DNA from: Escherichia coli
GTDB lineage: Bacteria; Pseudomonadota; Gammaproteobacteria; Enterobacterales; Enterobacteriaceae
Length of the DNA stretch: 64,000 bases
Reading direction: 5' to 3' (one strand)
NCBI RefSeq assembly: GCF_016903815.1
Contig: NZ_CP069973.1
Under the pieces are notes generated by a model. It had not been told where the DNA came from, did no database searches, and was given only the letters and a program-made list of their open reading frames with translations. The position numbers were made by a program, and so were the translations under genes. Positions within the stretch are counted from its first letter, which is position 1. Each line of letters begins with the position of its first letter. Positions 18,697-41,042 of this stretch are shown here, piece after piece.

Positions 18697-18801
18697 CAAT
18701 GCGTGCAATAGCGGCAAAGTGATGATAGATTGTGCAGTCTGCCCTAAATTGAAGAAATTTGATTGACGAGACGAGGCGAATCAGGTTTAATGCGCCCCGT
18801 T

Positions 18802-18877
18802 GCCCGGATAGCTCAGTCGGTAGAGCAGGGGATTGAAAATCCCCGTGTCCTTGGTTCGATTCCGAGTCCGGGCACCA
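18802..18877 (+). tRNA. pheV: tRNA-Phe (GAA anticodon)
   Basis: 76-nt cloverleaf gcccggatagctcagtcggtagagcaggggattgaaaatccccgtgtccttggttcgattccgagtccgggcacca; position after yqgA. Confidence 0.95.
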
Positions 18878-18888
18878 AATTCATATAA

Positions 18889-18915
18889 ACGGACCTCCAC
18901 GGAGGTCCGTTTTTC
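18889..18915 (+). terminator. tRNA terminator
   Basis: acggacctccacggaggtccgtttttcg hairpin plus T-run. Confidence 0.6.
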
Positions 18916-19074
18916 GTTTCAGAACACCATGATTTAAGTGTTCTTCCTCCAAATCAATTCTACCGAACTCAACCAAATTCTCCCCACATCAACCTCATTG
19001 TGTGGGTATAATTGCGGGTATACCCCAGTTCGACAGAATTTGTACCCTCTTTAACGCATTCAGAAGGCTGAACT

Positions 19075-20337
19075 ATGGCACTGACTGACGCAAAAATCCG
19101 GGCTGCAAAGCCCACTGACAAGGCTTATAAACTTACTGACGGGGCCGGCATGTTCCTGCTGGTTCATCCTAATGGTTCCCGTTACTGGCGTCTCCGTTAT
19201 CGTATTCTGGGTAAGGAGAAGACTCTGGCACTTGGTGTGTATCCAGAAGTTTCTCTCTCCGAAGCTCGTACAAAACGGGATGAGGCCCGAAAACTGATTT
19301 CGGAGGGGGTTGACCCTTGCGAACAGAAAAGAGCTAAAAAAGTTGTCCCTGATTTACAGCTCTCTTTTGAACATATTGCACGACGCTGGCATGCCAGTAA
19401 TAAACAATGGGCACAATCACACAGCGATAAAGTACTCAAAAGCCTCGAGACACACGTTTTCCCCTTTATCGGCAACCGGGATATCACAACACTCAATACC
19501 CCGGACCTGCTTATCCCTGTTCGTGCTGCAGAAGCTAAACAAATTTATGAAATCGCCAGTCGTCTGCAGCAAAGAATATCTGCTGTAATGCGTTATGCCG
19601 TACAGTCTGGCATCATCAGATATAACCCGGCTCTGGATATGGCTGGTGCATTGACCACGGTAAAACGCCAGCATCGCCCTGCTCTGGATCTTTCACGCCT
19701 GCCTGAACTTCTGTCGCGTATTGACGGTTATAAAGGCCAGCCTGTCACCCGACTGGCAGTTATGCTGAATTTACTGGTTTTTATTCGTTCCAGTGAACTC
19801 AGATATGCCCGCTGGTCTGAAATTGATATTGACAATGCCATGTGGACTATTCCAGCCGAACGCGAACCTCTGCCGGGCGTAAAATACTCACACCGGGGCT
19901 CCAAGATGCGAACACCACATCTTGTGCCACTCAGCCAACAGGCTGTAGCCATACTGACAGAACTTCAGACATGGGCAGGTGAAAATGGTCTGATATTTAC
20001 GGGTGCACATGACCCGCGTAAACCAATCAGTGAAAATACTGTAAATAAAGCCCTCAGGGTGATGGGGTATGACACAACCCGGGAAGTCTGTGGCCATGGA
20101 TTCCGGGCGATGGCGTGCAGTGCATTGATTGAATCAGGTTTGTGGTCCCGCGATGCTGTGGAACGTCAGATGAGCCATCAGGAGCGTAATGGTGTACGTG
20201 CTGCGTATATCCATAAAGCAGAACATCTGGAAGAACGTCGACTGATGCTACAGTGGTGGGCAGATTTTCTGGATGCGAACAGAGAACAATGTATCAGCCC
20301 GTTTGAATATGCAAAGATTAACAATCCATTAAAATAG
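19075..20337 (+). CDS. P4-type tyrosine integrase
   Basis: 420-aa ORF, N-terminus MALTDAKIRAAKPTDKAYKLTDGAGMFLLVHPNGSRYWRLRYR typical of P4/CP4 integrases, adjacent to tRNA. Confidence 0.9.
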   Translation: MALTDAKIRAAKPTDKAYKLTDGAGMFLLVHPNGSRYWRLRYRILGKEKTLALGVYPEVSLSEARTKRDEARKLISEGVDPCEQKRAKKVVPDLQLSFEHIARRWHASNKQWAQSHSDKVLKSLETHVFPFIGNRDITTLNTPDLLIPVRAAEAKQIYEIASRLQQRISAVMRYAVQSGIIRYNPALDMAGALTTVKRQHRPALDLSRLPELLSRIDGYKGQPVTRLAVMLNLLVFIRSSELRYARWSEIDIDNAMWTIPAEREPLPGVKYSHRGSKMRTPHLVPLSQQAVAILTELQTWAGENGLIFTGAHDPRKPISENTVNKALRVMGYDTTREVCGHGFRAMACSALIESGLWSRDAVERQMSHQERNGVRAAYIHKAEHLEERRLMLQWWADFLDANREQCISPFEYAKINNPLK

Positions 20338-20433
20338 TAATCATCCCGGGCTGCCAGCCCGGGAATTGTTTTATGAATATTTTTCTTTGTGAGTAACCGG
20401 AAAAAAGATAGCGAAATAAATTACTTTAATGAA

Positions 20434-22038
20434 TTACTCCAGGGTTTCATTAAAGTTCTTTCGTAATACTTTGTAGTCAAACACGTTATGACTGGCATCA
20501 AAAACCACGGATTTCCCCTGCCAGCGGGTAATCACCTCCTCCGGCGTTTTCGGTTGAGCCGGTCTGGTTACGCCCATCCATGCATTAATCAGATAATCAT
20601 TATACGCAGTGGAAAAAACGCTGTTCACCGTCTGGCGATCGACATGCTCTCCCAGTGTCGGGCTGTACCAGATAAACATCGGAACATGATAAGCCTGCTG
20701 ACTGGGTTTTATTCCACCATGAAAATAGGCATGTTCTTTTGTCGGGTCATACTCCAGACCGTGATCTGAAAAATACATGACTGATGCCCGACGCGTTTCC
20801 AGCATGGCGAAAATCTGTCCCAACAAACTGTCGGTATAATGAATGGAATTATCGTAGCAGACTTCTTCTGTATCCAGCGGTTTAAACACGGCTTTATCTC
20901 TGGGCCAGTTACTGCAGACTGGCTCATGACTGCCCGTCAAATGCAGAACAATCAGTTTCCTGCCTCCCGGATTACTGTTCAGTGCTTCAGCCAGGTGTGG
21001 GAGCAGTAACTCATCATAGCCTCTGACATAAATTCTGTTTCTGGCCCGCATGGCGATACTGGCCACAGCCGTTCCGTTCTGTCGGAAAGCGGACTGCGCA
21101 CTGAGCCACCAGGTATCGAACCCCGCCTGATTCGCCATGTTGATAATGTTATCAGGGTAATTACGGATATCATGATGCAGTACACTATCGGCAGATAACG
21201 CCAGTGGAACAGCCAGCGCGGTGTAAGGTGCGCCACTGATTGCCTGAGTGAACAGTTTCAGTCGTGATTTCTGTTTCTGAAGCTCTGGTGTGGTAGGGCG
21301 CGAATACCCGTAAATGGACATGTTATCAGTCCTTGCAGATTCACCAATCACCAGAACAAATACGTCAGTGTTGTTATCCGTAATCACCAGATCGTAGTGA
21401 GGTATGGTATCAGCAATCGTCATTAATCTCTGATGCTCCTTTGCGGCCAGTGCAAAATAGTTCAGATTAAAGAAAGGGGTATATGTGGCAAACCGGGAAG
21501 CGACTATGTAAGGATCAACTTCATTTATTTGATACTGTTTCTTCAACGCAAACTGGAAGGAAGAATATAACGTTACTGTAATTAACAATAAAAATGTAAT
21601 TACCGTGACCTTTTCCGATGGCAATGAGGACGTTTTATTTATTGCTGAACAGAAGAACAATAAAAAGAGGATAATAAATGCGATAACATAAACAACATAC
21701 ATCCTGAACATTCTTATTGCTTCATCAGGATCTGTCTGTAGGATACTGATTGCAAAACCATCATTGAATGTGGTGTCAAATGTACACCATGAATACAGGC
21801 TGATACTGATATCTGCCGCGGTCAGTAATGTGAACGGAAAGGCCAGAATAAAACGCAGCGTAAGCGATTTCATCGCCTTAATAATAAGAATTGCCAGGAT
21901 AAAGAATAACACCCGGTAGATCAGATGTGCTCCTGAGGATACCAGGAGATTAGAAAGAGTAAAGACACCCACAGATAACACGAGGCACTTATCATTGCAA
22001 ATCCGCGGCCAGTGTATGAACGGAAGATTAATTTTCAT
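20434..22038 (-). CDS. sulfatase-family phosphoethanolamine transferase-like inner membrane protein
   Basis: N-terminal multi-TM region plus VLVIGESARTDNMSIYGY motif typical of PEtN transferases; start (MKINLPF) uncertain. Confidence 0.7.
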   Translation of the reverse strand: MKINLPFIHWPRICNDKCLVLSVGVFTLSNLLVSSGAHLIYRVLFFILAILIIKAMKSLTLRFILAFPFTLLTAADISISLYSWCTFDTTFNDGFAISILQTDPDEAIRMFRMYVVYVIAFIILFLLFFCSAINKTSSLPSEKVTVITFLLLITVTLYSSFQFALKKQYQINEVDPYIVASRFATYTPFFNLNYFALAAKEHQRLMTIADTIPHYDLVITDNNTDVFVLVIGESARTDNMSIYGYSRPTTPELQKQKSRLKLFTQAISGAPYTALAVPLALSADSVLHHDIRNYPDNIINMANQAGFDTWWLSAQSAFRQNGTAVASIAMRARNRIYVRGYDELLLPHLAEALNSNPGGRKLIVLHLTGSHEPVCSNWPRDKAVFKPLDTEEVCYDNSIHYTDSLLGQIFAMLETRRASVMYFSDHGLEYDPTKEHAYFHGGIKPSQQAYHVPMFIWYSPTLGEHVDRQTVNSVFSTAYNDYLINAWMGVTRPAQPKTPEEVITRWQGKSVVFDASHNVFDYKVLRKNFNETLE

Positions 22039-22159
22039 AATAATTGTGTAAAAGCGATATTTCTGTCCGGCACTGGTCGCTGAACATGCCGTGACAGGTG
22101 AATTCATTATTTTGAATAATCATAAAGCCGCCACAAATGTAGCGGCGTAAACAGGAGCG

Positions 22160-22444
22160 TCATGATGTTTTCTTTCGTGACAGAAGAGAACGGCACATAC
22201 CGCCCGCAATCATTATCATCAGGAATAACATCCCCAGGCCAACGATTACTCTTAATGCCGGATGAACCCGATCGGCGAGAAAAAATAACTCCATCCCGAA
22301 ACCAATAACAAGCCAGACCAGCGCCATTCCGACGAGCCCTTTTAACAGCAATCTCACGATCCTCTCCTTCTGCGTTCTTAACGAAAATGCCTTACAATAA
22401 CAGCAGCCGGAGAAAGCAACGCTGGCTGCTGAACGGAATGACAT
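22160..22444 (-). CDS. small hydrophobic protein (hypothetical)
   Basis: 94-aa ORF with TM-like stretch LVGMALVWLVIGFGMELFFL; last gene of the WYL cassette string. Confidence 0.35.
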   Translation of the reverse strand: MSFRSAASVAFSGCCYCKAFSLRTQKERIVRLLLKGLVGMALVWLVIGFGMELFFLADRVHPALRVIVGLGMLFLMIMIAGGMCRSLLSRKKTS

Positions 22445-22496
22445 TTTACTGTTTTATGTTCTCTCAGTTTCTATCCTGACGCCGCCATTAATGGCA

Positions 22497-22763
22497 TTAC
22501 AGTTTATTCAGAATAAGGCAGGCGGCCCGGTTTAATGCAATAAACTCCTGCCAGCTGTACTGAGACTGATAATTCAGTAAATACTGGTCTTCAACCCGGC
22601 AAATCTGTGGGCGTTTATCATAAATTGCACACAAATGAGAATCAGTCTGATAGTGACGGCAAATACCGTCACCACGATCCAGACATTGCGTTTCACCCGC
22701 CCTGTTGACATGACGACAACAGGCCCCACACTGGTTACAGGGAAATGGAGGGTGTAATTTCAT
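22497..22763 (-). CDS. YkgJ-family Cys-cluster (zinc/iron-chelating) protein
   Basis: CNQCGACC ... C-x-C motifs in 88-aa ORF; 4-nt overlap with upstream gene. Confidence 0.7.
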   Translation of the reverse strand: MKLHPPFPCNQCGACCRHVNRAGETQCLDRGDGICRHYQTDSHLCAIYDKRPQICRVEDQYLLNYQSQYSWQEFIALNRAACLILNKL

Positions 22764-24331
22764 CGCTTATTTAACCAGTCACGAACAGAAGCCACATTTC
22801 CTGACTCAAACGGCAACGCAATCCCTCGTCGGCTGACTTCTTCTCTCAGCAGAAGTCCGCGCTCTATCTCACTGTTTACGCTATCCAGATGAAGTGAAAA
22901 ATGATTTAACGCGGCAGCATCAACAGAAAATTCCAGTGCAGTAAGTTCCACAAGATAGCGATCAAGTTCAGCATTGACTGCCTGAAAGTATTCCAGTGAC
23001 CGCTGGAATTTGTCCTTAAATTTGTCCAGAAATGCCCATACCCGCTGCATAACCTCGCTATATTCGAGATAATAATTCATCACCAGCCCGAGAATACCTG
23101 TCGTCAGCGCACCACAAAAGGCAGCAAGCTCTGAACCAAATGGAAAAATAAGGATCTGCGCCATCGCCTCATTTATCATCACCCCACCGGCAACAGCCAC
23201 ACCTGCTGCTATCAGTTTAGTGACCGCTTTGGCTAACTGCCCCGGCGATAATCCCTCCGGGTTAAATACCAGGACTTTAAAGGCCTGAACGAGGTTGTTC
23301 CACATTTCCCTGATAAGCCGGACAATCATTCTTTCCGTCGTCAGGAATATATTTAACAGCGTTGTGGTAATACCTGACAGTATCCCTCCGATGACACCAT
23401 CTTTAAAGGCAATTAAAAAAGAACTGAATTTTTCCTGTACTCGTTCCTGGCAGGCACGTAATGCTGACGTTATTTCGGACAGGCATTTGCCGGCGCAGAA
23501 TGAGTTCCGTTGCTGTCTGATAATATGCGGGATTCGTTCCCTCAGTTCGAACCAGATCTCGGCAAGAATAAGCCCCAGCATCTGTCGCGTCCCCATACGA
23601 AAACCGGAATTAAGTGAAGCACTGGCGACAGCAGTAGCAAACTTACTACTCAGGTAATAGCTCTGATTAATCGTGGTCTCGTATTTTTCCCGGGCATATT
23701 TATCAGCCCTTTCCATACGCTCAGTATCTGCATCAGCTTTTTTTCTCAGACTTATCAGACGTTTCTTTTCTTTTTCTGTCAGTGTTGCCTGAGATTCAAG
23801 CTCTGCTATCTGCCTTAACGTATCTTCTCTGTTTTTCTGCAGCGTGCAAATAAACGCATCCATTGAGTCTGCTTTCTTTGATTTATTGAGCGACTCATGA
23901 GTGAATGCCAGATTTGAAGCGTCATTTGCCAGTTCTGCACCATCCCGTTCAGCAAGAATTCTCCCCGGATCATCATGAATTTCTTTAGCGGAAATAATAT
24001 GATCCAGATTTTTTTTATCGTCTGAAGCAAACACTTCGCCTGTATATGCATCAGTAAGAGTCCCTGACTGATGTGCACGCTTTCCTTTCCGGTTCGTCGC
24101 GATGTAGTTCTCATGGCTGTGGTAATGATGAGAATCATAGTCGCCACGACCTTCATACCGCTGTCGCTCAGCCTCCGTGGCATAAATGCCATTACGCACA
24201 TTATGGATAGTGTCAACATCACCACCCTTACGATCATTTAGCAACAGAAAATCCAGCCCGAATGATGCAACCAGGCTCTTCACCATGGTCTGATGTAACT
24301 CTTCTGCCCAGTCAAATTTTTCCACATTCAT
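22760..24331 (-). CDS. hypothetical 523-aa protein, soluble His/Asp-rich N-domain plus C-terminal multi-TM region
   Basis: ORF translation; N-terminal motifs GGDVDTIHNV, DHIISAKEIHDDPGR; hydrophobic helices in C-terminal half. Confidence 0.6.
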   Translation of the reverse strand: MNVEKFDWAEELHQTMVKSLVASFGLDFLLLNDRKGGDVDTIHNVRNGIYATEAERQRYEGRGDYDSHHYHSHENYIATNRKGKRAHQSGTLTDAYTGEVFASDDKKNLDHIISAKEIHDDPGRILAERDGAELANDASNLAFTHESLNKSKKADSMDAFICTLQKNREDTLRQIAELESQATLTEKEKKRLISLRKKADADTERMERADKYAREKYETTINQSYYLSSKFATAVASASLNSGFRMGTRQMLGLILAEIWFELRERIPHIIRQQRNSFCAGKCLSEITSALRACQERVQEKFSSFLIAFKDGVIGGILSGITTTLLNIFLTTERMIVRLIREMWNNLVQAFKVLVFNPEGLSPGQLAKAVTKLIAAGVAVAGGVMINEAMAQILIFPFGSELAAFCGALTTGILGLVMNYYLEYSEVMQRVWAFLDKFKDKFQRSLEYFQAVNAELDRYLVELTALEFSVDAAALNHFSLHLDSVNSEIERGLLLREEVSRRGIALPFESGNVASVRDWLNKR

Positions 24332-24377
24332 GTTATTTCACTTCTTGTAAAGCCGGGCTTTAACGCCCGGTAAATCA

Positions 24378-25457
24378 TTAACTCCGGGATGAAAAATCAT
24401 CAAATTTCACAACCGAACTGGCCAGTACATCATCCAGCTCTTCCTTATTAATAACATTCATTCCATTATCATCCTTTTCCATTTCAATAACGTTATCTTT
24501 TATCACAGCCTCACCATTTTCCTGTTTCCGCGGTTTAAACAGTGGCGTTGTAATAATATCCGTCATAATAGCGGCCAGTGAATATCCATGGTCAATAAGC
24601 ATAATGATTTCATCTGATACATTGATATCCTGTTGTTCTGTAATAACAGAATGCATGGATTTAAGCGGCTCAAAATAGTGTTTAATAAATACAGCATGCA
24701 TTCTGTTCAGCGCAGCGAGAATTTCATCAACGTATTGATTAACTTTTGCAAAATGCTCCCGGGCCAGATTCATTTTCTTAACTGCCCGTTCAACTTTGCA
24801 GGCACACTGATGGGCATTTTCAAGAGCTTTCGTCGCGTGTCTGTCGTAAGCCCAGCCCGCAATGGCAATCAACGGTGCAGCCACTGCGGTGCCTAATACC
24901 ATTGCGCCGCCGGCCATTCCCATGCCCCCTGCCGCGAGAGAGCCCCCTCCAATTGCCGCCATCGTCGCGTTATAAGCCGCGGCACCAGAAAGCGCTGCAA
25001 TGGGTGTACCTGTGGAAGCCGCAGCAAATGCCATCACTCCGCTATACACAGCAAAACCCGCAGCAGCCCCGGAAACTCCGGCAGCTACGACCGTACTGAG
25101 ATATTCTGTTGCTGAAATGGCCAGGTTATGAATCTTATTGATGTTATGTTGCGGGACACTCAGTTTCAGGTCTTTATTGCCCTCTTTTTCCAGACGCGCC
25201 AGGAGCTCAGCAGCAATCCTGTCGAACTCACTGAAATCTTTACCAATCTCAAGCTCTTTATTTCCGAGCGTTGTTAATTTTGATGATGTCTGAGCTTCAG
25301 CCTGCTCAAATTTTCCTTTATGCTCCTCGTAACGCTCTTTTGCTTTTTCGAGCACATCCTCTGCTTCTGACTTTTTTTGATATCCATCGTAAGCTTTTTT
25401 TCCGCCGAATGCCGCAGCGCCGGCAGCCACACCCAAAATAATGAAAGGTAACGCCAT
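24378..25457 (-). CDS. hypothetical membrane protein with Gly/Ala-rich glycine-zipper-like TM segment
   Basis: N-terminal TM MALPFIILGVAAGAAAF, coiled-coil-like charged region, Gly/Ala-rich stretch; AGGAGG RBS. Confidence 0.6.
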   Translation of the reverse strand: MALPFIILGVAAGAAAFGGKKAYDGYQKKSEAEDVLEKAKERYEEHKGKFEQAEAQTSSKLTTLGNKELEIGKDFSEFDRIAAELLARLEKEGNKDLKLSVPQHNINKIHNLAISATEYLSTVVAAGVSGAAAGFAVYSGVMAFAAASTGTPIAALSGAAAYNATMAAIGGGSLAAGGMGMAGGAMVLGTAVAAPLIAIAGWAYDRHATKALENAHQCACKVERAVKKMNLAREHFAKVNQYVDEILAALNRMHAVFIKHYFEPLKSMHSVITEQQDINVSDEIIMLIDHGYSLAAIMTDIITTPLFKPRKQENGEAVIKDNVIEMEKDDNGMNVINKEELDDVLASSVVKFDDFSSRS

Positions 25458-25495
25458 TCTTTTCCTCCTGTACAGGTTGCTTTATCATCAGTCAA

Positions 25496-25509
25496 CTGAA
25501 ATATTTCAG
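25496..25509. promoter_or_regulatory. 14-bp perfect palindrome CTGAAATATTTCAG between regulator and downstream gene
   Basis: Seen directly; overlaps regulator stop codon, about 40 bp upstream of next start. Confidence 0.3.
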
Positions 25510-26402
25510 GAAACATTCTCAGCGGTGAGGTATTTTCCTAACATTGTTAACACGGCTTCTTTCAACCATACTGGTTCAATAATTTCAACATTCGGTAGCC
25601 AGTATAAAATCAACGGGATAATTTGATTTTTATGTGCAGCCTTGCATGACAGCGTAATGCCATTATCATGTCTGTGTAGCAATTGCTGGTAAGGAAGTAA
25701 GTCCCGTCGCAAAAAATAATGGGCGATATTACTGTGAATGAACAACACTACATCAAATGTTTTGTCGCTCACCCACGGGTCACATGACTCACTTATCAGT
25801 GACTGTATTTCCTCACTCTTTGCAAACTTTTCTTTTTTTATATCCAGCCATTTTATTTTAGCTAATGAAAACGACTTTAACTTGTTCTCTTCAGTAGCCA
25901 GCAAATACCATATACTTCTCTGATTAGTTAATTTATAGGGATGAACGATTCTGGTCTTACCGGCATATGCAATCTGACAAATATTACTGTTGCGGATCGC
26001 TTTTTCAAGAACATCAAGATATTTTCTTAAATCATCCCTGATAGTGTGCTCAGGGTTATGAAACTGAACACGAATATGCTTTTCGGTTGCCCTGTTTTCT
26101 AATTTCTGCCAGAAACCTTCATCCCGTTCAGGAAAAATCGCATCAGTATCCAGTAACCTGGCCAGAGATTTGTGCAGTGATCCTTTGCTCTGGTTTCCTG
26201 CTCTTGCTGAAATAAGCCGGTATTTTCCATCGCCACAGGCTTCAATAAAGGGAGAAAGCATATTCAGATCACGATATGCTGTTCGCTCAGTGATGTTGTA
26301 TTTTTTCATCAAATTATGACGACTGACCACGCCATAATTCTGTAATTCAACAAGGATATCAATCAAACGCTCCGCTGAGCGATTTCTCGTTGAGTCAGCC
26401 AT
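25506..26402 (-). CDS. WYL-domain transcriptional regulator (HTH-WYL-WCX type)
   Basis: N-terminal HTH-like segment, WYL signature RSIWYLLATEENKLKSFSLAKI. Confidence 0.75.
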   Translation of the reverse strand: MADSTRNRSAERLIDILVELQNYGVVSRHNLMKKYNITERTAYRDLNMLSPFIEACGDGKYRLISARAGNQSKGSLHKSLARLLDTDAIFPERDEGFWQKLENRATEKHIRVQFHNPEHTIRDDLRKYLDVLEKAIRNSNICQIAYAGKTRIVHPYKLTNQRSIWYLLATEENKLKSFSLAKIKWLDIKKEKFAKSEEIQSLISESCDPWVSDKTFDVVLFIHSNIAHYFLRRDLLPYQQLLHRHDNGITLSCKAAHKNQIIPLILYWLPNVEIIEPVWLKEAVLTMLGKYLTAENVS

Positions 26403-26455
26403 AAATCACTGCACCTGTAGTATTACTCTTGTGTAAGTGAATTATATAAATACTC

Positions 26456-26472
26456 CTGACATCATTTGTCAG
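26456..26472. promoter_or_regulatory. inverted repeat CTGACAtcattTGTCAG upstream of WYL regulator
   Basis: Seen directly, about 55 bp upstream of regulator start; half-site resembles the 25496 palindrome. Confidence 0.3.
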
Positions 26473-26821
26473 TTCCACAAAACTACGCCCTCCGGCAACA
26501 GATTTTTATTTGATTATGTTCAAACTTTAAACCAGATGTCCGGGAGCCTCCTTCGTAATACGGTTTATTGTTTCCGGAAGGGCTGATATGACAAAAAACA
26601 ACGTGTCCCAACAACAGTCCTTTTTCATTTAACAGACTGACAACCATACTGCGCGCTACCTGCCCCCTGTAAAAAATCAACGAGAGTAATATTTTTGCTC
26701 TATTTATATTTCATTCATCTGAAATTATTAGTTGCCAGAGGGAGAATATCATCAGGATATCTGTTATTGATTTGTCATACCTGCACTTTACTGTGCTCCA
26801 AAGCGCAGGCAGAAATGGCCA

Positions 26822-27559
26822 TCAGAAGTTATATGTTGCACCTAACATAAACTCATTACTTCTGACATCAACAGAGGATTTATATTTAGCGCCATCCTCA
26901 TCTTTATAAGTCAGAGTGGAATCCCCTGCATCCAGATACCGGTAACTGAGGTCAAGGCTGAAATCCTGCGTCACATCGTATTTAACACCGACACCAAGGC
27001 TCCATGCCAGGTTATTTTCGTATTTTGACGCTGAAGCTGAATATACTTCACTGCCTGCCGGACTGTTATCGGTATATATGTACGAAGTTTTATGATGAAC
27101 CCGAGCATAACCCAGACCAGCAGATATCCATGGCGTGAATGCACTGCTGTTTCTGAAATCATAATACGCATTCAGCATCAGCGTGTTTACACTGAGCTTG
27201 TTCTGTGCATCATCAAACTCGGCACCACCGACACTTTCCCAATAACTCAGACGATATTTTGATTCAGCGTTACCGCGGCCATAAAACTCCACTTCAGTAC
27301 GCACCGGCACATTGTAGTGCTGATAAAAATCGTATCCCACCGCAAGGCCTGCGCCAAAAACCGTATCACTTTTGTCACCGCCTTTATATTTATCCGCCCA
27401 TGCCCCTTCACCATCAACGAAACGTTGCTCTGAAAGTGACATAACAGAAGCACCTGCTTTACCGGTCACATAAAAGCCTGTTTTGCTCTCATCAGCCAGA
27501 GTCTGGGCCGAAAACATGCCTGCCATTGCAAGCGCTGAAACCGCAATAACCTTTTTCAT
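26822..27559 (-). CDS. outer membrane beta-barrel protein (Tia/Hek/Hra-like adhesin-invasin family)
   Basis: Signal peptide MKKVIAVSALAMAGMFSAQTLA, alternating aromatic beta-strand pattern, C-terminal ...LGATYNF. Confidence 0.7.
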   Translation of the reverse strand: MKKVIAVSALAMAGMFSAQTLADESKTGFYVTGKAGASVMSLSEQRFVDGEGAWADKYKGGDKSDTVFGAGLAVGYDFYQHYNVPVRTEVEFYGRGNAESKYRLSYWESVGGAEFDDAQNKLSVNTLMLNAYYDFRNSSAFTPWISAGLGYARVHHKTSYIYTDNSPAGSEVYSASASKYENNLAWSLGVGVKYDVTQDFSLDLSYRYLDAGDSTLTYKDEDGAKYKSSVDVRSNEFMLGATYNF

Positions 27560-27877
27560 TTCAATCATCTCCGTTGGTTCTTGCCCTACCCGACAAAGAG
27601 GGTTGCCTATTTTAAAACCATGCAAAAGACAGGGTAAAATGGTTACAACCGATCGATGTGATCATATCGATCGGTAAAATCGATCGATATTGGTGAGGGT
27701 TTTCGTTTCGAATCAACAAAATGGTAATGATGGGGCCCGGACTGAAATGCTGTGTCCCAGAAGCCCGGAAGGTTTGCATTACAACTGCACCACAGTACAA
27801 AATGTCAGACACAGTAAAAAAGACTGGGTAATCAACCCACCAGAGAAAACACGTTTATTGCAAAAGAGAGGGGAATT

Positions 27878-28351
27878 ATGTGCAAACTGACTAAAGAAGA
27901 AGAATACAGCATCATCAGTCGGACAATGACGAATATTCGTTCACTACGCACGTATGTACGCGAACTTGATTTTGAGCAATTACTCGACATGCAGGAAAAG
28001 CTCAACACTGTTATTGAAGAACGCCGTGAAGATGCTGAACGAAAAGCGGCTGAACGTAAGGAACTGGAAACTAAATGTCAACAGGTATTTGAGTACATCG
28101 TTTCTGTGGGGCTTGACCCGGAAGAATGGCAGGGTCCAGTTTCTGCTATTGCAGGGACAACGGAAACCAAACGAAAACCCAAAGGCGGTGTGAGAAAAGC
28201 GAAATATATCTTTGAGGATGAGAACGGCGAAACCAGGACGTGGTCTGGTAACGGTAAAATGCCACTTGCTTTGCGGAAACAGGTTAATGGAGATTGTACC
28301 CTGGAAACTTTCCTCATTGAAAAACCCAATCAACATGAACAAAGTGAATAA
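27878..28351 (+). CDS. H-NS family nucleoid protein paralog
   Basis: Translation aligns by eye with H-NS (NIRSLRTYVRELDFEQLLDM...; AKYIFEDENGETRTWSGNGKMP). Confidence 0.8.
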   Translation: MCKLTKEEEYSIISRTMTNIRSLRTYVRELDFEQLLDMQEKLNTVIEERREDAERKAAERKELETKCQQVFEYIVSVGLDPEEWQGPVSAIAGTTETKRKPKGGVRKAKYIFEDENGETRTWSGNGKMPLALRKQVNGDCTLETFLIEKPNQHEQSE

Positions 28352-35972: not shown

Positions 35973-36214
35973 AAAATGCATCGGTTGATCTCGATGGAAG
36001 GACACAACTGATAGATCATGTTCTTGGACTTCTTACTGAATACGGCATTGTGTTCAGTAAAAGCGCAACAGAATTACGCCCCAAATTACCGGCATTACTT
36101 GAGGATGCGGCGATGCTGTACCTGCGGATTGGTACATGCCGTCTGAACAATATGGCTCCAGAAAAATGGCTGTGAACCGCCCCGGGTTTCCTGGAGAGTG
36201 TTTTATCTGTGAAC

Positions 36215-37105
36215 TCAGGCTGCCAGATCATCGTTTCCGATGGAAGCATAATAAGCTTTTTCTGCTTCTGCCGGAGGAGTATGGCCCAGCCTTCCCAGCA
36301 ATCGTCGATTGTTATACCAGTCCACCCACGTTAGTGTGGCCAGTTCCACTTCTGCACGGTTTTTCCAGCTCTTACGGTGTATTACCTCCGCTTTGTAAAG
36401 ACCATTGATGCTCTCAGCCATCGCGTTGTCATACGAGTCGCCTGTACTCCCTGTTGATGCCAGTAATCCGGCTTCTTTTAGTCGCTCCGTATAGGCCAGT
36501 GACACATACTGAGAGCCTTTATCGCTGTGATGGATGGTGCCAGACGGACGACGGGCCCACAACGCCTGCTCCAGCGCATCCAGCACGAATGTCGTTTCCA
36601 TAGACGATGAGACCCGCCACCCCACGATGTATCCGGCAAACACATCAATGATAAACGCCACATAGACGAAGCCCTGCCATGTGCTGACGTAAGTAAAATC
36701 AGCCACCCACAGCTGGTCAGGTCGTTCTGCCACGAACTGACGGTTTACGCGGTCGCCTGCGGCAACGGCTTTCCGGCTGATGGTCGTACGGACCTTTTTA
36801 CCCCGGAGAACACCGGCAAGTCCCATAACCGCCATGAGACGTGCCACTGTACATCTGGCCACCCTGATTCCTTCCCGTAACAACTGACGCCAGACTTTAC
36901 GCACACCGTACACCTGATGATTTTCATCGTATACGCGCTGTATCTCTCTCTTCAGCCAGTCGTCGTGCTGCGCACGGGCACTGCGTTTATCCGGATGATG
37001 TCGCTGTTGCTGACAATGGTAATACGTTGACGGGGCAATATGCAGTTCGCTGCATACCGGTCCGACCCCGTACTGCTCACGCAGCTTATCCAGCAGTGGC
37101 ATCAT
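36215..37105 (-). CDS. insF: IS3 transposase OrfB (DDE integrase domain)
   Basis: 296-aa translation recognised as IS3 InsF. Confidence 0.85.
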
Positions 37106-37428
37106 TTTTTCCAGAGGCGGTCGAACTCCGCCTTCGCAAAATAAGCGGAAGCCTGGCGAAGGATATCGTTACTGCGGCGCAGTTCACGATTTTCACGTTC
37201 CAGCTCTTTCAGACGCTGACGTTCAGCGCTGGTGAGCCCACCATCACCGCCCCCGGTATCCCGCTCATGCTGGCGAACCCAGACACGCAGAGTCTCCGGC
37301 GTACAGCCAATCTTTGGAGCAATGGAACAAATTGCCGCCCACTGTGAGTCATATTCATCCTGACTTTCCAGAACCATACGAATCGCCCGCTGACGGACTT
37401 CGGGGGAAAAACGAGTATTTTTAGTCAT
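37102..37428 (-). CDS. insE: IS3 transposase OrfA (HTH)
   Basis: 108-aa translation [20 protein letters not shown]... recognised as IS3 InsE. Confidence 0.85.
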
Positions 37429-37453
37429 CCTGTTTACCTCTTTCTCAGGGAGT

Positions 37454-40400
37454 TTAGTCTCCAGGATTTCCGGGGCGGTTCAGCTGTTCATTAAAACGTT
37501 GTCCAGGCTGATCATAAAGTGCGCGTAATGTCTCCGCGGATGGCCGCGGTTGCATTTGCTGCATGCAGGGTTTCTGGTGGTAATCAAAATACTGTGGCAG
37601 ATGCTGGATCTCTGCTTTGTTTTCAATTACCCGTTGAAGGGCTCTTTGACGCAACTCTCTTGATGATTTGTCACGGATCGATTCCAATTGTAGCTGGCTG
37701 CCGCTACTAATTCGCTTACGAGCAGCATCAAAATCAAAGCGAATAGCCAATAGACTCGGCGTAGTCTCACTTAGCTGCAATTCCCCTAATTGCACTGATT
37801 CACGCTTATCTTTAATATAAACAATGATCTTATCATCAAGTTCAAAGCTGAGGTCAGCACCGGATTCCGTAGTATATGGGTAGAGTAAGCAACCACTCGG
37901 TGATTCCTGAAAGTCAGTAGAGTCGATGTTGACTATATCTCGTAGGTCTACTTCTGTATCAGATAATGCCTGCCATAACTCAATTGGGCTTGACTCACTA
38001 CTATCGAAGTCATCTTCATCCATCTCTTGATTAGGATTAGCTCGCTCAATGATGGCATCAATTACTGGCTCGAGGTTAAACAGTAGTTCAATAAAAGTAT
38101 TACGCTGATTAAGTGAGCCACGTTGTAATGAAAGTTGAGTATTAATTTTAGCCTGGGAATATTTACCAGCCTTTATACTTTCTTCGATCGATAATCCTTT
38201 TTCATACACTATTCTATTAATAGTGCGATTATCAGGATCTAAGTCTATCAATAGCCGCTCTCCTAGGCCAGTGATGTAACAACGCAATTCATGCGCAAAG
38301 CGTGGGTTAGATGACCAGTTACATTGAAAATAATAGATCCCATCATTTTGTTCTAGAAGCTTCACTTCTTGCGGCCAATCATCTGTGCCCCAGCAAACAG
38401 GAATTACCTTATCCTGTGACTCAGACGCCACAACTTGATTAATCTCAGCTTGTTCCGGTGCTCGAATTGACTGCAGCAAAGGATCGAGCGCGATAGGTAT
38501 ACCGTCAACGGTTTGTTTTGCGCGTTCTAGCTCAGCCTGCACCAGTACTGGCATATCTTCACTAAATAGCTCCTCCACCATACGATATACTGCAAAGCAA
38601 TCTCGCCCAAAAGCATCAGTACTTTCGGGATTCTCTGGCTGGTAGCGATTATCTGCAGTTAATTCATCACTGAATTCAAGCAATCCAATCAGAGTAATTA
38701 CTGTCTGCTCCCCGACTTGTACCAGCAGTTTCTCTGGGCAAAGATCTCCATGAGGTAACTGCTTTTCATGAAAAGCATGAATGGTGTTGATCAACTTTTC
38801 CGCAATTGTAAAACGTTGGGATTGTACTAACACGTTCTCAGCAATAAACTGTGACCACGGTAGGCCATCCACATACTCGCTCACTACATACAAGCCGCCT
38901 TGTCCTAATAGTCCATAGGACTGCACCTTAGGAGTTGGCAGATTTATATGCGTAAGCTTATCGATCCGTTGCTTAAAAGCGTGGATACGGCGGTTAACAC
39001 CAGGTTGTTGAGGGGTCAAAATAACACCATCCCACAATTTTACCTGCAGAGCTTTCCCACCTTGTTCACAGTGATAACTGATGCTGCCAGTCGTAGCAAT
39101 AGCAGCAAGAGCAGAGTAAACCATAGACAACTGTTCAGGAAGTGGAGGAAACTCAATTAACACACCAACGCTGTTCATCCCTTCGCGAAAGAATTTGTTT
39201 TGCTTTAATTCTTGATAAATCTGGTTAGCTTCATCAAATTCTTGGCTATGTTCCTTAGTAGCTGCATTAAACTCATTGAGCATTATGTCCGCACGTGGAA
39301 AGCGTTTACTTGGCTCAAGGTTAAGAGCTTGCTCAAACCAGCTATTTAGAATACCGCTAAAAGGATCAGTTAATGGAGCTCTCCATTCAGGCATCTGTCC
39401 AGGAGTCAGTAATGATTCACCTGCAAAACAAATACGATAAGCAATTACAGCCAACATGAATACATCTAGGCGATAGGGCTCAACTGCTTCTTCAAAAGCA
39501 TCTTCGGGCAAAATATATGGAGCACTTTGCAATGTCGGACGCAATGACTCTAGGCTATTATGTCCCTCCAGTGAGGCTGCGCCAAAGCCAGTAACGACAA
39601 TGCTCTTCTGATCCCCTGCGTACCATAGATTGTGCGGGTCAATATCACAATGACTGATACCCAAGCTATGTAATTCCGAGAATGGAGCTAATAATGCACG
39701 AACGCGATCAATACGCTCAGATTTACTCCATCCGTCAGCTTCGCTATCTAGAATCTCATCTAATCGGCTAAAACTACGGCGTAACTCATACAGCTCACGG
39801 GCATCATCAGTTATATCCTCCTCGGATAGTTCCCTTACAGCACGCAACATATAATCCTGCATAGTTGCGCTGCCATGACGAACTAGGCGACCGACTCGAG
39901 TCTCACGCAGAGCTATCTCAGCCCACAATGTTTGCATTGCGTTTGCTACACCCAAGGCATCAAAGTTCCACTGCCGTAGCAGACCTCTGTGTTGACTATT
40001 GTCTTTGTGGGTAGCCCTGAATTCGTTGTAGACCATGTGAGGGTGACTAAAGAATGGCTTATCGTTCGCAAGATAACCGCTTTCTTTTAGTGGCAAAGGC
40101 CTGACTTTTGGTCCTTCAAAGAAGGACTTAATTATAGGTAATGCCTCATCAGAATTTGGTCGAGGCTTTCCCCCTTCAAAAAGATGAAAAAAGTTAGTGT
40201 GTTGCACCAGCTTTTCGTAATTTTTTGGGTTACCTATAGTCAAGAATTCATCACGGGTATGAACATAGCGCCTCTCACTTAATGGCAAGTTTTCAGGACC
40301 AGCTGTGCCACACAGCACTACATGAGCCTCAACATGCAAAAAGTAACCCAGCTTACGAGATAACTCTTCCTGCAACAAATCTTTTAGTCGCAGTGCATGC

Positions 40401-40885: not shown

Positions 40886-41042
40886 AAGATGCGAACACCA
40901 CATCTTGTGCCACTCAGCAAACAGGCTGTAGCCATACTGATAAAACTTCAGACATGGGCAGTTGAAAATGGTCTGGTCTTTACGGGAGCACATGACCCGC
41001 GTAAACCAATCAGCGAAAACACCGTAAATAAGGCCCTTAGGT
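40886..41042 (+). pseudogene. integrase gene fragment (about 157 bp copy of 19903-20060)
   Basis: Near-identical by eye to the internal segment of the integrase at 19075-20337. Confidence 0.7.

Follow-up and report, generated by a model that had tools for sequence, protein, structure and literature searches.

On the lipopolysaccharide (LPS) of Escherichia coli K-12, the phosphoethanolamine (PEtN) positions are filled by EptA, EptB, and EptC, and YhbX is not known to contribute. PEtN transferases that target proteins also exist, such as Campylobacter EptC, which acts on FlgG, and Neisseria PptA, which acts on pilin. For YhbX itself, no function has been established (PMC4013655), and our search of the literature on yhbX and yjgX function found no functional data. 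Members of the family are also carried by genomic islands. Specifically, the tia island (at selC), LAA module I (at pheV), and PAI II-536 (at leuX) have the same order of tRNA gene, integrase, (TPR/SisA), PEtN-transferase gene, and adhesin gene (tia, hes, or hek) (PMC5539235). Plasmid-expressed Hes alone was assayed for adherence in E. coli HB101 (PMC5539235), and a hes-sisA deletion described in 2026 removed the PEtN gene as well, so that its phenotypes are confounded (PMC13340028). The gene for the YjgX type of enzyme (K-12 pseudogene yjgX, “peaX” of O157:H7 NADC 6564, and the PEtN genes of both LAA module I and PAI II-536) occupies a slot beside a tRNA gene in which it converges with a P4-type integrase and has an Hra-family adhesin gene immediately upstream (PMC6174562, PMC6408774). 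A peaX carrier was colistin-sensitive, with an MIC of 0.66 versus 0.41 ug/mL, a difference that was not significant between strains that were not isogenic (PMC6408774).

We analyzed a gene of this family in a 64,000-nucleotide stretch of E. coli DNA (contig NZ_CP069973.1; hereafter, the window). Our results suggest that it is probably an intact, selectively maintained island paralogue of yhbX that encodes a predicted envelope PEtN transferase, forms a two-gene unit, and belongs to a recurrent island backbone from which the neighboring WYL cassette is separate. The features of the locus are collected in Table 1. The attachment site, pheV, is flanked by nupG-speC-yqgA in the annotation of strain 222. 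The window equals strain 222 over positions 300-37486, after which an IS1203-bounded difference of ~10 kb follows. The integrase is 68% identical to K-12 IntB, and its stop codon lies 96 bp from the PEtN gene, tail to tail. Within the window, we found no direct repeat of the tRNA 3′ end that would mark the end of the island. The PEtN gene has a GC content of 44.5%, compared with 51.6% for the core flank, and ~467 of 5426 complete E. coli genomes (~9%) carry an allele at a nucleotide identity of at least 90%, annotated as “phosphoethanolamine transferase”. Altogether, the pheV island, the GC content, and the patchy presence bear out the horizontal acquisition assumed in the original prediction. 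No close phage copy of the gene was found, and plasmid carriage is essentially nil, bar one 62-kb non-mobilizable circular record (CP057032.1).

Table 1. Features of the pheV island around the PEtN-transferase-family gene (positions in the window)
Feature	Position	Strand	Evidence
tRNA-Phe (pheV), island attachment site	18802-18877	+	ARAGORN
P4-type tyrosine integrase, convergent with the PEtN gene	19075-20337	+	Pfam Arm-DNA-bind_3, Phage_int_M, Phage_integrase
GC-rich terminator-like hairpin, 9 pairs, between the two converging stops	20344-20364		terminator scan, direct sequence reading
YhbX-type PEtN-transferase-family gene	20434-22038 (alternative start 22107)	-	Pfam, NCBIfam, phmmer, structure model, dN/dS
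Terminator-like hairpin separating the small ORF from the PEtN gene; 8 pairs, 6 of them GC, followed by TTTATGATTATT	22127-22146	-	terminator scan
65-aa ORF, GTG start preceded by AAGGAGAGG, two hydrophobic helices	22160-22357	-	PGAP CDS
WYL cassette: CxxCxxCC protein, 523-aa and 359-aa proteins, WYL/WCX regulator	22497-26402	-	Pfam, PADLOC
Hra-family outer-membrane adhesin gene	26822-27559	-	identity to Tia 69%, Hes 67%, Hek 62%

The ORF listing of the window gives a single ORF at this place, on the minus strand from 20434 to 22107 (557 aa), and PGAP also sets the start at 22107. An internal ATG at 22038, the end coordinate of the original prediction, gives a 534-aa form (MKINLPF...) whose start aligns with the annotated N-terminus of K-12 YhbX. 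Since no clear Shine-Dalgarno sequence was found at either candidate start, and the 23-codon N-terminal extension is open in all eight alleles compared, we keep both candidates. A consensus scan found no convincing promoter between the upstream hairpin and either start codon. The ORF is a real gene and not a chance ORF, as it matches Pfam Sulfatase (PF00884, E = 1.5e-50, residues 250-497 of the 557-aa form), phmmer aligns its product with structures of EptC (5zzu), NmEptA (5fgn, over residues 45-471), and MCR-1, and seven alleles from pheV, pheU, and selC islands show purifying selection (dN/dS 0.11-0.20, dS at most 0.23, no indels, and no stops). As such, the proposal of a PEtN-transferase-like gene at this place is confirmed.

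The 65-aa ORF upstream travels with the PEtN gene and has a dN/dS of ~0.3; together, the two make up a two-gene unit. The hairpin between them is kept in all eight alleles, with G-U wobbles as the sole changes. We found no homologue of the small ORF in front of core yhbX, nor any in Leminorella or Hafnia, and it is an orphan confined to E. coli.

The predicted protein has five hydrophobic segments within residues 18-165, which are predicted to form N-terminal transmembrane (TM) helices. Its AlphaFold model (pLDDT 92.9, pTM 0.91) places long helices at residues 16-171. The best Foldseek matches of the model are EcEptC, full-length NmEptA (5fgn, TM 0.64), and MCR-1 (9nww, TM 0.63), and the catalytic domain matches the same three enzymes with E values of 1e-20 to 1e-14 and TMt of 0.70-0.77; LtaS-type proteins are matched as well, at ~1e-10. 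In the numbering of the 534-aa form, the predicted active site consists of E233, T273, H371, D425, H426, and H440, which align with E240, T280, H383, D452, H453, and H465 of NmEptA. All 50 representatives of the subfamily that were compared have E233, H371, D425, and H426, and conservation reaches at least 90% for T273 and H440. The protein thereby combines the features of the PEtN-transferase family, namely a five-TM N-terminal domain, a sulfatase-fold domain, and a Thr nucleophile with metal ligands. Fold, catalytic residues, and architecture agree with the earlier assignment to the sulfatase-fold PEtN transferases.

By analogy with EptA and MCR-1, the product would be an enzyme anchored in the inner membrane by five N-terminal TM helices, with its sulfatase-fold domain on the periplasmic side. 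Thr273 would most likely take phosphoethanolamine from phosphatidylethanolamine at a zinc site formed by E233, D425, and H426, together with H371 and H440, and would then hand it on to an acceptor in the envelope. Our best candidate for this putative acceptor, at about even odds, is a glycan or glycolipid that is exposed to the periplasm and distinct from the classical lipid A 1/4′-phosphate site. The superfamily also takes in phosphoglycerol transferases and the non-catalytic PbgA/YejM. Since other chemistries occur in it, we infer the transferred group from the closest folds only.

Within the family, the island protein is 64% identical to K-12 YhbX over 523 aa, compared with 23-28% to EptA, EptB, EptC, OpgE, and the YjgX-type enzyme, so that its full-length similarity to YhbX exceeds that to every other E. 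coli paralogue. Likewise, among 50%-identity cluster representatives, a YhbX-like protein matches it best (65% identity, E = 4.5e-230). The gene is found not at the orthologous position, argG-yhbX-leuU, but in the pheV island, where the integrase and the cassette flank it. Judged by its identity of 64% and its different locus, the gene is a paralogue or xenologue of yhbX and not its orthologue. The original prediction had named clear orthology to a housekeeping family member with no envelope phenotype as the result that would count against it. This result was nearly reached, as yhbX is a housekeeping gene for which no envelope phenotype is established (PMC4013655), but the relationship is one of paralogy. 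With the YjgX type (“PEAX”), the gene has the genomic slot alone in common, as the sequence falls outside that type. The possibility that it is the intact version of the K-12 pseudogene yjgX (leuX-intB-yjgX) was rejected, as the identity is only 30%. LAA-type islands hold a 69-aa C-terminal remnant of the YhbX type (a 3′ remnant) beside their YjgX-type gene.

The neighborhood shows a modular organization. In seven of seven loci that were chosen only by adhesin similarity, and in most other contexts too, a co-directional PEtN-transferase gene lies downstream of the adhesin gene. This order holds across adhesin alleles that are 60-100% identical and across two PEtN subfamilies that are ~27% identical. 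We conclude that integrase, (TPR/SisA), PEtN transferase, and Hra-family adhesin form a recurrent tRNA-proximal backbone in pheV, pheU, selC, and leuX islands, and that defense cassettes insert between its parts, between the adhesin gene and the PEtN unit. The possibility that the island pair is a copy of core ompX-opgE was rejected, because no significant similarity links the adhesin to OmpX and the genes are oriented differently. Outside E. coli, a scan of genome contigs gave context for nine loci only. Neither the Leminorella (62%) nor the Hafnia (49%) homologue has an integrase, adhesin, or tRNA gene nearby, and more distant members of the YhbX subfamily lie in unrelated neighborhoods or on short contigs. 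No clue to the substrate was found in these neighborhoods, and no operon partner that would name a substrate was found in the context of the gene.

This organization bears on two explanations that tie the gene to its neighbors. The original prediction placed it co-directional with, and ~120 bp from, the WYL cassette, possibly in the same unit; it could then be the terminal gene of that cassette and might, under the WYL regulator, act as effector or accessory in a candidate anti-phage system. The geometry holds, as the nearest co-directional upstream ORF ends at 22160, 121 bp from 22038. In addition, two cassette genes match PADLOC candidate-defense models (PDC-M40B, 1.8e-42; PDC-M09A, 1.7e-22), the regulator matches WYL models, and 333 genomes hold at least 80% of the 9-kb block from tRNA-Phe/integrase to the adhesin gene (18700-27700), so that cassette and PEtN gene usually occur together in this allele group. 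Membership in the same unit is nevertheless contradicted by the exchange of the cassette: in tia islands, LeoABC stands in for it upstream of the same gene and 65-aa ORF, and homology with these Leo-linked alleles stops exactly at the GTG of the ORF, at 22357, a sharp breakpoint which indicates that the cassette is exchanged as a whole. In other islands, this position is free of any cassette, and on CP057032.1, where the 65-aa ORF and the PEtN gene also occur as a pair, the 12 kb displayed contain no annotated WYL-cassette gene. Moreover, the terminator-like hairpin intervenes, and PADLOC gives no match for the PEtN gene, which falls outside both the WYL-regulated candidate defense cassette and known defense systems. 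The idea of a terminal cassette gene is thus largely refuted and highly improbable. The WYL cassette is instead an exchangeable insert in its own right, which occupies the variable gap that separates the adhesin gene from the PEtN unit. It is distinctly unlikely, if less so, that the gene is a functional partner of the co-inherited adhesin, decorating it or the surrounding LPS and thereby tuning adhesion or autoaggregation, or masking the adhesin as a phage receptor. The order kept in all seven adhesin-chosen loci, across adhesin alleles and both PEtN subfamilies, would fit such a partnership, as would the existence of protein-targeting enzymes (Campylobacter EptC on FlgG, Neisseria PptA on pilin). 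On the other hand, the linkage may just mirror a shared backbone beside the integrase, cassettes of 4-5.5 kb part the two genes here and in tia islands, two of the seven loci combine a frameshifted PEtN gene with an intact adhesin gene, and the pairing was not seen at the loci examined outside E. coli. The published experiments point both ways, as the phenotypes of the hes-sisA deletion are confounded by the loss of the PEtN gene (PMC13340028), while Hes was assayed for adherence when expressed alone from a plasmid in HB101 (PMC5539235).

Two further explanations concern what the enzyme does, if anything. The first is in effect that of the original prediction, in which the gene could alter surface charge and possibly susceptibility to cationic peptides. 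An activity on lipid A or the LPS core, with a less negative surface charge, tolerance of polymyxin and cationic peptides, and an MCR-like intrinsic function, would agree with a fold and active site that are the same as those of EptA, MCR-1, and EptC, and with the best NCBIfam matches, which are to the generic lipid A PEtN-transferase domain and to CptA. Every one of these matches, however, lies far under its curated cut-off: 161 bits versus 500 for the generic domain model, 138 versus 561 and 95 versus 660 for the EptA models, 118 versus 493 for EptB, 148 versus 404 and 132 versus 900 for the CptA models, and 36-73 versus 1075-1250 for MCR-1 to MCR-13. With the cut-offs missed 3- to 30-fold, the protein lies outside EptA/MCR and EptB/EptC (CptA), and on these scores it is not an EptA, EptB, EptC, or MCR orthologue. 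Its identity to EptA, EptB, and EptC is also low, at 23-28%, and the PEtN positions of K-12 LPS are already covered by these three enzymes. The peaX-carrying strain, furthermore, stayed colistin-sensitive (PMC6408774). Altogether, we regard a lipid A or LPS-core enzyme as unlikely. Very unlikely, in our view, is a functionless passenger, that is, a duplicated yhbX carried with the integrase and slowly decaying. Island PEtN genes are indeed truncated or frameshifted in K-12 (yjgX), RM13322, SHP24, and 97-3250, which means that the slot is not always under selection; LAA-type islands keep, of the YhbX type, the 69-aa C-terminal remnant alone, and the gene here is AT-rich. Against decay stand the low dN/dS over a dS of up to 0.23, with no indels or stops in the seven alleles, the intact catalytic residues, and the ~467 genomes with alleles of at least 90% nucleotide identity. 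Therefore, an intact YhbX paralogue under selection remains our preferred explanation.

These results have practical consequences. The gene is already annotated and frequent in the backbone of islands of this kind, and its interest is ordinary and modest, arising from its context. If the enzyme is active, carrier strains gain a sixth PEtN-transferase paralogue, with a bearing on envelope charge, adhesin function, and phage adsorption in the islands of ExPEC, ETEC, and STEC. It would be a mistake to treat the gene as a determinant of colistin resistance. Studies that delete the hes, sisA, tia, or hek regions must control for the PEtN gene between or beside them, and the WYL cassette should be analyzed as its own unit, with its boundary at 22357/22358. 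It is an unlikely extension that the order kept across four tRNA sites, many adhesin alleles, and two unrelated PEtN subfamilies reflects a functional pair of adhesin and transferase, the latter here with its 65-aa partner, and that the gap is a previously undescribed landing pad for defense cassettes. If the pair were functional, the published hek, tia, and hes phenotypes would partly depend on the transferase.

Compared with described enzymes, the island protein is closest to K-12 YhbX (b3173; a putative hydrolase or PEtN-transferase family protein), with which it shares length, N-terminus, and catalytic residues. Both genes are AT-rich (43.1% GC for yhbX and 44.5% for the island gene), but yhbX belongs to the core genome, lying between argG and leuU with a match in 5233 of 5426 genomes, whereas the island gene is found in ~467 and has the 65-aa upstream ORF that is absent at core yhbX. 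The YjgX-type enzymes, which share the slot, are 499-500 aa long, only 26-27% identical to the island protein, and closest to OpgE (30-31% over full length); their gene is without the small upstream ORF, and the type is far commoner, with a match in 3151 genomes. OpgE has the same family and architecture, but its identity to the island protein is 27% over 312 aa, short of close full-length similarity, and opgE is a core locus (ompX-opgE), unlike the island gene. Because OpgE acts on an acceptor that is a non-LPS glycan, it offers a plausible guide to the possible role of an orphan paralogue. EptA/PmrC, MCR-1 to MCR-13, EptB, and EptC/CptA share with the island protein the five-TM and sulfatase fold, the Thr nucleophile, and the zinc site, and they are its best structural matches, yet identity to EptA, EptB, and EptC remains low, and the island gene has no PmrAB-linked context. 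Finally, at the level of the island, the tia-island allele is 95% identical to the gene described here. The gap between adhesin and PEtN genes holds the WYL cassette in this window, compared with LeoABC or nothing in the tia, LAA, and PAI II-536 islands, and the TPR/SisA gene of their backbone is absent from this window.

The original prediction of a phosphoethanolamine (PEtN)-transferase-like gene after the integrase was borne out: the gene is real and consists of one long minus-strand ORF, convergent with the integrase and separated from it by 96 bp, with a GC-rich 9-bp hairpin between the two stop codons. The end predicted for it, 22038, is an internal ATG that would give a 534-aa protein; the PGAP annotation has the 557-aa form. 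The N-terminus of K-12 YhbX aligns with the 22038 start, the 23-codon N-terminal extension is open in 8/8 alleles compared, and neither start (22038 or 22107) has a clear ribosome-binding site. The GC content of the gene is 44.5%, versus 51.6% in the core flank. The window is E. coli chromosomal DNA and matches strain 222 (NZ_CP020516.1) at 100% identity over 300-37486; it diverges from that strain by ~10 kb at an IS1203 copy.

Features of the pheV island in the window and recurrent relics in compared islands (L numbers denote compared loci, with coordinates of those loci)
Feature	Position	Strand	Remark
nupG-speC-yqgA			precede tRNA-Phe
tRNA-Phe (pheV)	18802-18877		
P4-type integrase	19075-20337	+	follows tRNA-Phe
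PEtN gene	20434-22107	-	557 aa
Terminator-like hairpin	22146-22127		between small ORF and PEtN gene
Small ORF	22160-22357	-	65 aa, GTG start
WYL cassette	22497-26402	-	
Hra-family outer-membrane adhesin gene	26822-27559	-	beyond WYL cassette
H-NS-family paralogue	27878-28351	+	divergent from adhesin gene
Sucrose (scr-type) utilisation operon			after H-NS-family paralogue
IS1203 copy	36172-37486		truncates large AAA-domain gene
Internal integrase fragment	40886-41041		90% identical to aa 277-328 of pheV integrase
Integrase 3' fragment	L004 9880-10059; L020 7410-7601; L024 6971-7138; L025 6953-7144; L026 6999-7136; L039 7997-8178; L041 8610-8794		just past adhesin gene
Antisense "hypothetical protein" (PGAP)	L003 7083-7312; L004 7029-7259; L041 5098-5325		over YhbX-type remnant

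The predicted enzyme family is also correct. The protein has a Pfam Sulfatase domain (E=1.5e-50) and five transmembrane-like segments by hydropathy (residues 18-165), and a PDB sequence search matched E. coli EptC, MCR-1 and full-length N. meningitidis EptA, the last over residues 45-471 of the query. An AlphaFold model computed from 50 subfamily sequences is confident (pLDDT 92.9, pTM 0.91); in the PDB it most resembles the catalytic domain of EptC, full-length EptA (TM 0.64) and MCR-1 (TM 0.63), followed more weakly by LtaS-type enzymes, PbgA/YejM and true sulfatases. The active-site residues E240/T280/H383/D452/H453/H465 of EptA correspond to E233/T273/H371/D425/H426/H440, each of which is either invariant across the subfamily alignment or conserved there in 90% or more of the sequences. 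In addition, seven alleles from pheV, pheU and selC islands contain no indels or stops and give a dN/dS of 0.11-0.20, with dS up to 0.23. Because of this fold, active-site conservation and dN/dS, the product is a maintained enzyme that is probably active. By homology, a phospho-Thr273 intermediate would form from phosphatidylethanolamine at a periplasmic zinc site, and the PEtN would then be passed from Thr273 to an envelope acceptor.

Within the family, the closest K-12 relative is YhbX (64% pairwise identity over 523 aa); identities are 27% to EptA, 23% to EptB, 28% to EptC, 27% to OpgE and 26-27% to the YjgX-type island enzyme. Likewise, a YhbX-like protein (65%) was the top hit among the representatives of a library clustered at 50% identity, and only 106 representatives reached E<=1e-30; more distant subfamily members lie in unrelated gene neighbourhoods. 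The core yhbX gene, located between argG and leuU, was matched in 5233 of 5426 genomes at ~68-69% nucleotide identity, and alleles of the island gene (at least 90% identity) in ~467 of the 5426. Therefore, the PEtN gene is an extra yhbX paralogue that is carried horizontally. It is in this sense ordinary: common, already labelled "phosphoethanolamine transferase" in RefSeq (WP_001389181.1), and paralogous to a housekeeping gene with no established function (PMC4013655), for which our literature search also found none. Core PEtN-transferase genes, too, adjoin tRNA or small beta-barrel genes (core loci L015, K-12 3319988-3322158, L017 and L019): yhbX (43% GC) lies beside leuU, eptB beside proK, and opgE is convergent with ompX. 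The ompX-opgE adjacency is probably a coincidence, since OmpX and the island adhesin are not significantly similar.

The likeness to MCR-1 raises the alternative of a lipid A or MCR-like role. The NCBIfam models for EptA, EptB, CptA/EptC and MCR-1 to MCR-13 all match the protein, yet far under their curated cut-offs (generic model, 161 vs 500 bits; CptA, 148 vs 404; MCR models, 36-73 vs 1075-1250). Given these scores, such a role appears unlikely. An O157 strain with the other island type (peaX) stayed colistin-sensitive (PMC6408774), which is weak evidence in the same direction because the enzyme is different and the strains were not isogenic.

It had also been proposed that the gene may form one unit with the WYL cassette. 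Moving upstream along its strand, one meets first the small ORF, then a CxxCxxCC protein, 523-aa and 359-aa proteins and finally a WYL/WCX regulator. PADLOC matched the 523-aa protein to PDC-M40B (1.8e-42) and the 359-aa protein to PDC-M09A (1.7e-22), and gave no match for the PEtN protein. The CxxCxxCC protein is YkgJ-like, the 359-aa protein is a Gly/Ala-rich membrane protein, and the 523-aa protein has, by eye, an HNH-like N-terminus and a hydrophobic C-terminus; its PGAP name, "ATP--cob(I)alamin adenosyltransferase", looks like a misannotation. The shared strand agrees with the proposal, but membership does not hold: nucleotide homology to the tia island runs from the PEtN gene to 22357, the start of the small ORF (also called by PGAP), and ends there, and in tia islands the same gap is filled by LeoABC, all three of which PADLOC classes as defence proteins. 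Specifically, the selC tia islands of EcPF7 and AF46 carry a 95%-identical PEtN allele downstream of leoA, with the entire leoC-leoB-leoA block and tia upstream in EcPF7.

The small ORF, a membrane ORF and an orphan limited to E. coli, is nearly always 65 aa long and encodes two hydrophobic helices. It has its own good Shine-Dalgarno sequence in both the WYL-linked and the Leo-linked context, and a dN/dS of ~0.3; its dS between the two contexts (0.33-0.39) is ~2x that of the adjoining PEtN gene. The hairpin downstream is kept in 8/8 alleles, with G-U wobble changes only. The YhbX-type island gene is always accompanied by this ORF, the pair recurs on a 62-kb circular record, and no counterpart lies upstream of core yhbX. 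On the comparative sequence evidence of the homology break, the LeoABC swap and this co-occurrence, the small ORF and the PEtN gene together form the conserved unit, and the WYL cassette is an exchangeable upstream block. The PEtN gene is neither an MCR-like resistance gene nor a WYL-cassette component. The two-gene unit with its membrane ORF and the exact cassette boundary, 22357/22358, are newly noted, if modest, points.

Defence genes cluster around the integrase/PEtN/adhesin module. In UPEC 536 PAI II (compared locus L023), the gene separating integrase and PEtN gene encodes an "AAA domain-containing protein" (703-4218) that matches PADLOC MkoC (Mokosh) over its full length, and therefore this gap also takes defence genes. 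Several compared islands have Druantia or type I restriction-modification genes on the far side of the adhesin gene, and the O157 island of PMC6408774 also carries dnd/dpt genes. A P4-type integrase 3' fragment (~aa 358-420), oriented as the full integrase and followed by variable defence cargo, recurs past the adhesin gene in compared loci and is absent there in the window; this recurrence suggests a mini-island, integrase-PEtN-adhesin, that became joined in tandem to an older one.

The adhesin shares 69% identity with Tia, 67% with Hes and 62% with Hek. Homology among its alleles ends exactly at the stop codon and reaches ~100 bp upstream of the start; M23 in the longest ORF is the probable true start (signal peptide MKKVIAVSALAMAGMFSAQTLA). 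In seven loci sampled purely by similarity to the adhesin gene (67-79% nucleotide identity), including UPEC 536 PAI II (hek), a tia island, and pheU, selC and leuX islands, a same-strand PEtN-transferase gene follows in 7/7. This synteny, the sole support for a functional link between transferase and adhesin, suggests that the two may act together; against it, two of the seven loci have a frameshifted PEtN gene beside an intact adhesin gene, and adherence was assayed with plasmid-encoded Hes alone in E. coli HB101 (PMC5539235). A 2026 study assigned virulence, biofilm and adhesion phenotypes on the basis of a 5,485-bp hes-sisA deletion in STEC UC4224, which also took out part of atoS and a PEtN-transferase gene of the YjgX type (PMC13340028). 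Since the PEtN gene was lost too, the phenotypes cannot be credited solely to hes and sisA, and the deletion cannot separate adhesin from PEtN contributions.

Altogether, we describe, as a modest new point, a recurrent backbone in which a PEtN-transferase gene follows an adhesin gene and defence cassettes are inserted between the two. In most sampled loci a YjgX-type enzyme (499-500 aa) directly follows the adhesin gene, and in the tia island a YhbX-type enzyme lies behind LeoABC; the YjgX type has a match in 3151 genomes and the adhesin family in 1814. LAA-type islands keep a 69-aa C-terminal YhbX-type remnant beside the YjgX-type gene, which shows past replacement at the PEtN slot. The remnant in LAA-type and selC islands is 54% identical to aa 465-533 of the PEtN protein, and the "hypothetical protein" antisense to it is probably a false gene call on top of a relic. 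In LEE-negative STEC, LAA module I has the order pheV, integrase, sisA, PEtN transferase, hes (also PMC5539235), and K-12 carries a decayed version comprising leuX, then intB, an IS2 insertion and the pseudogene yjgX.
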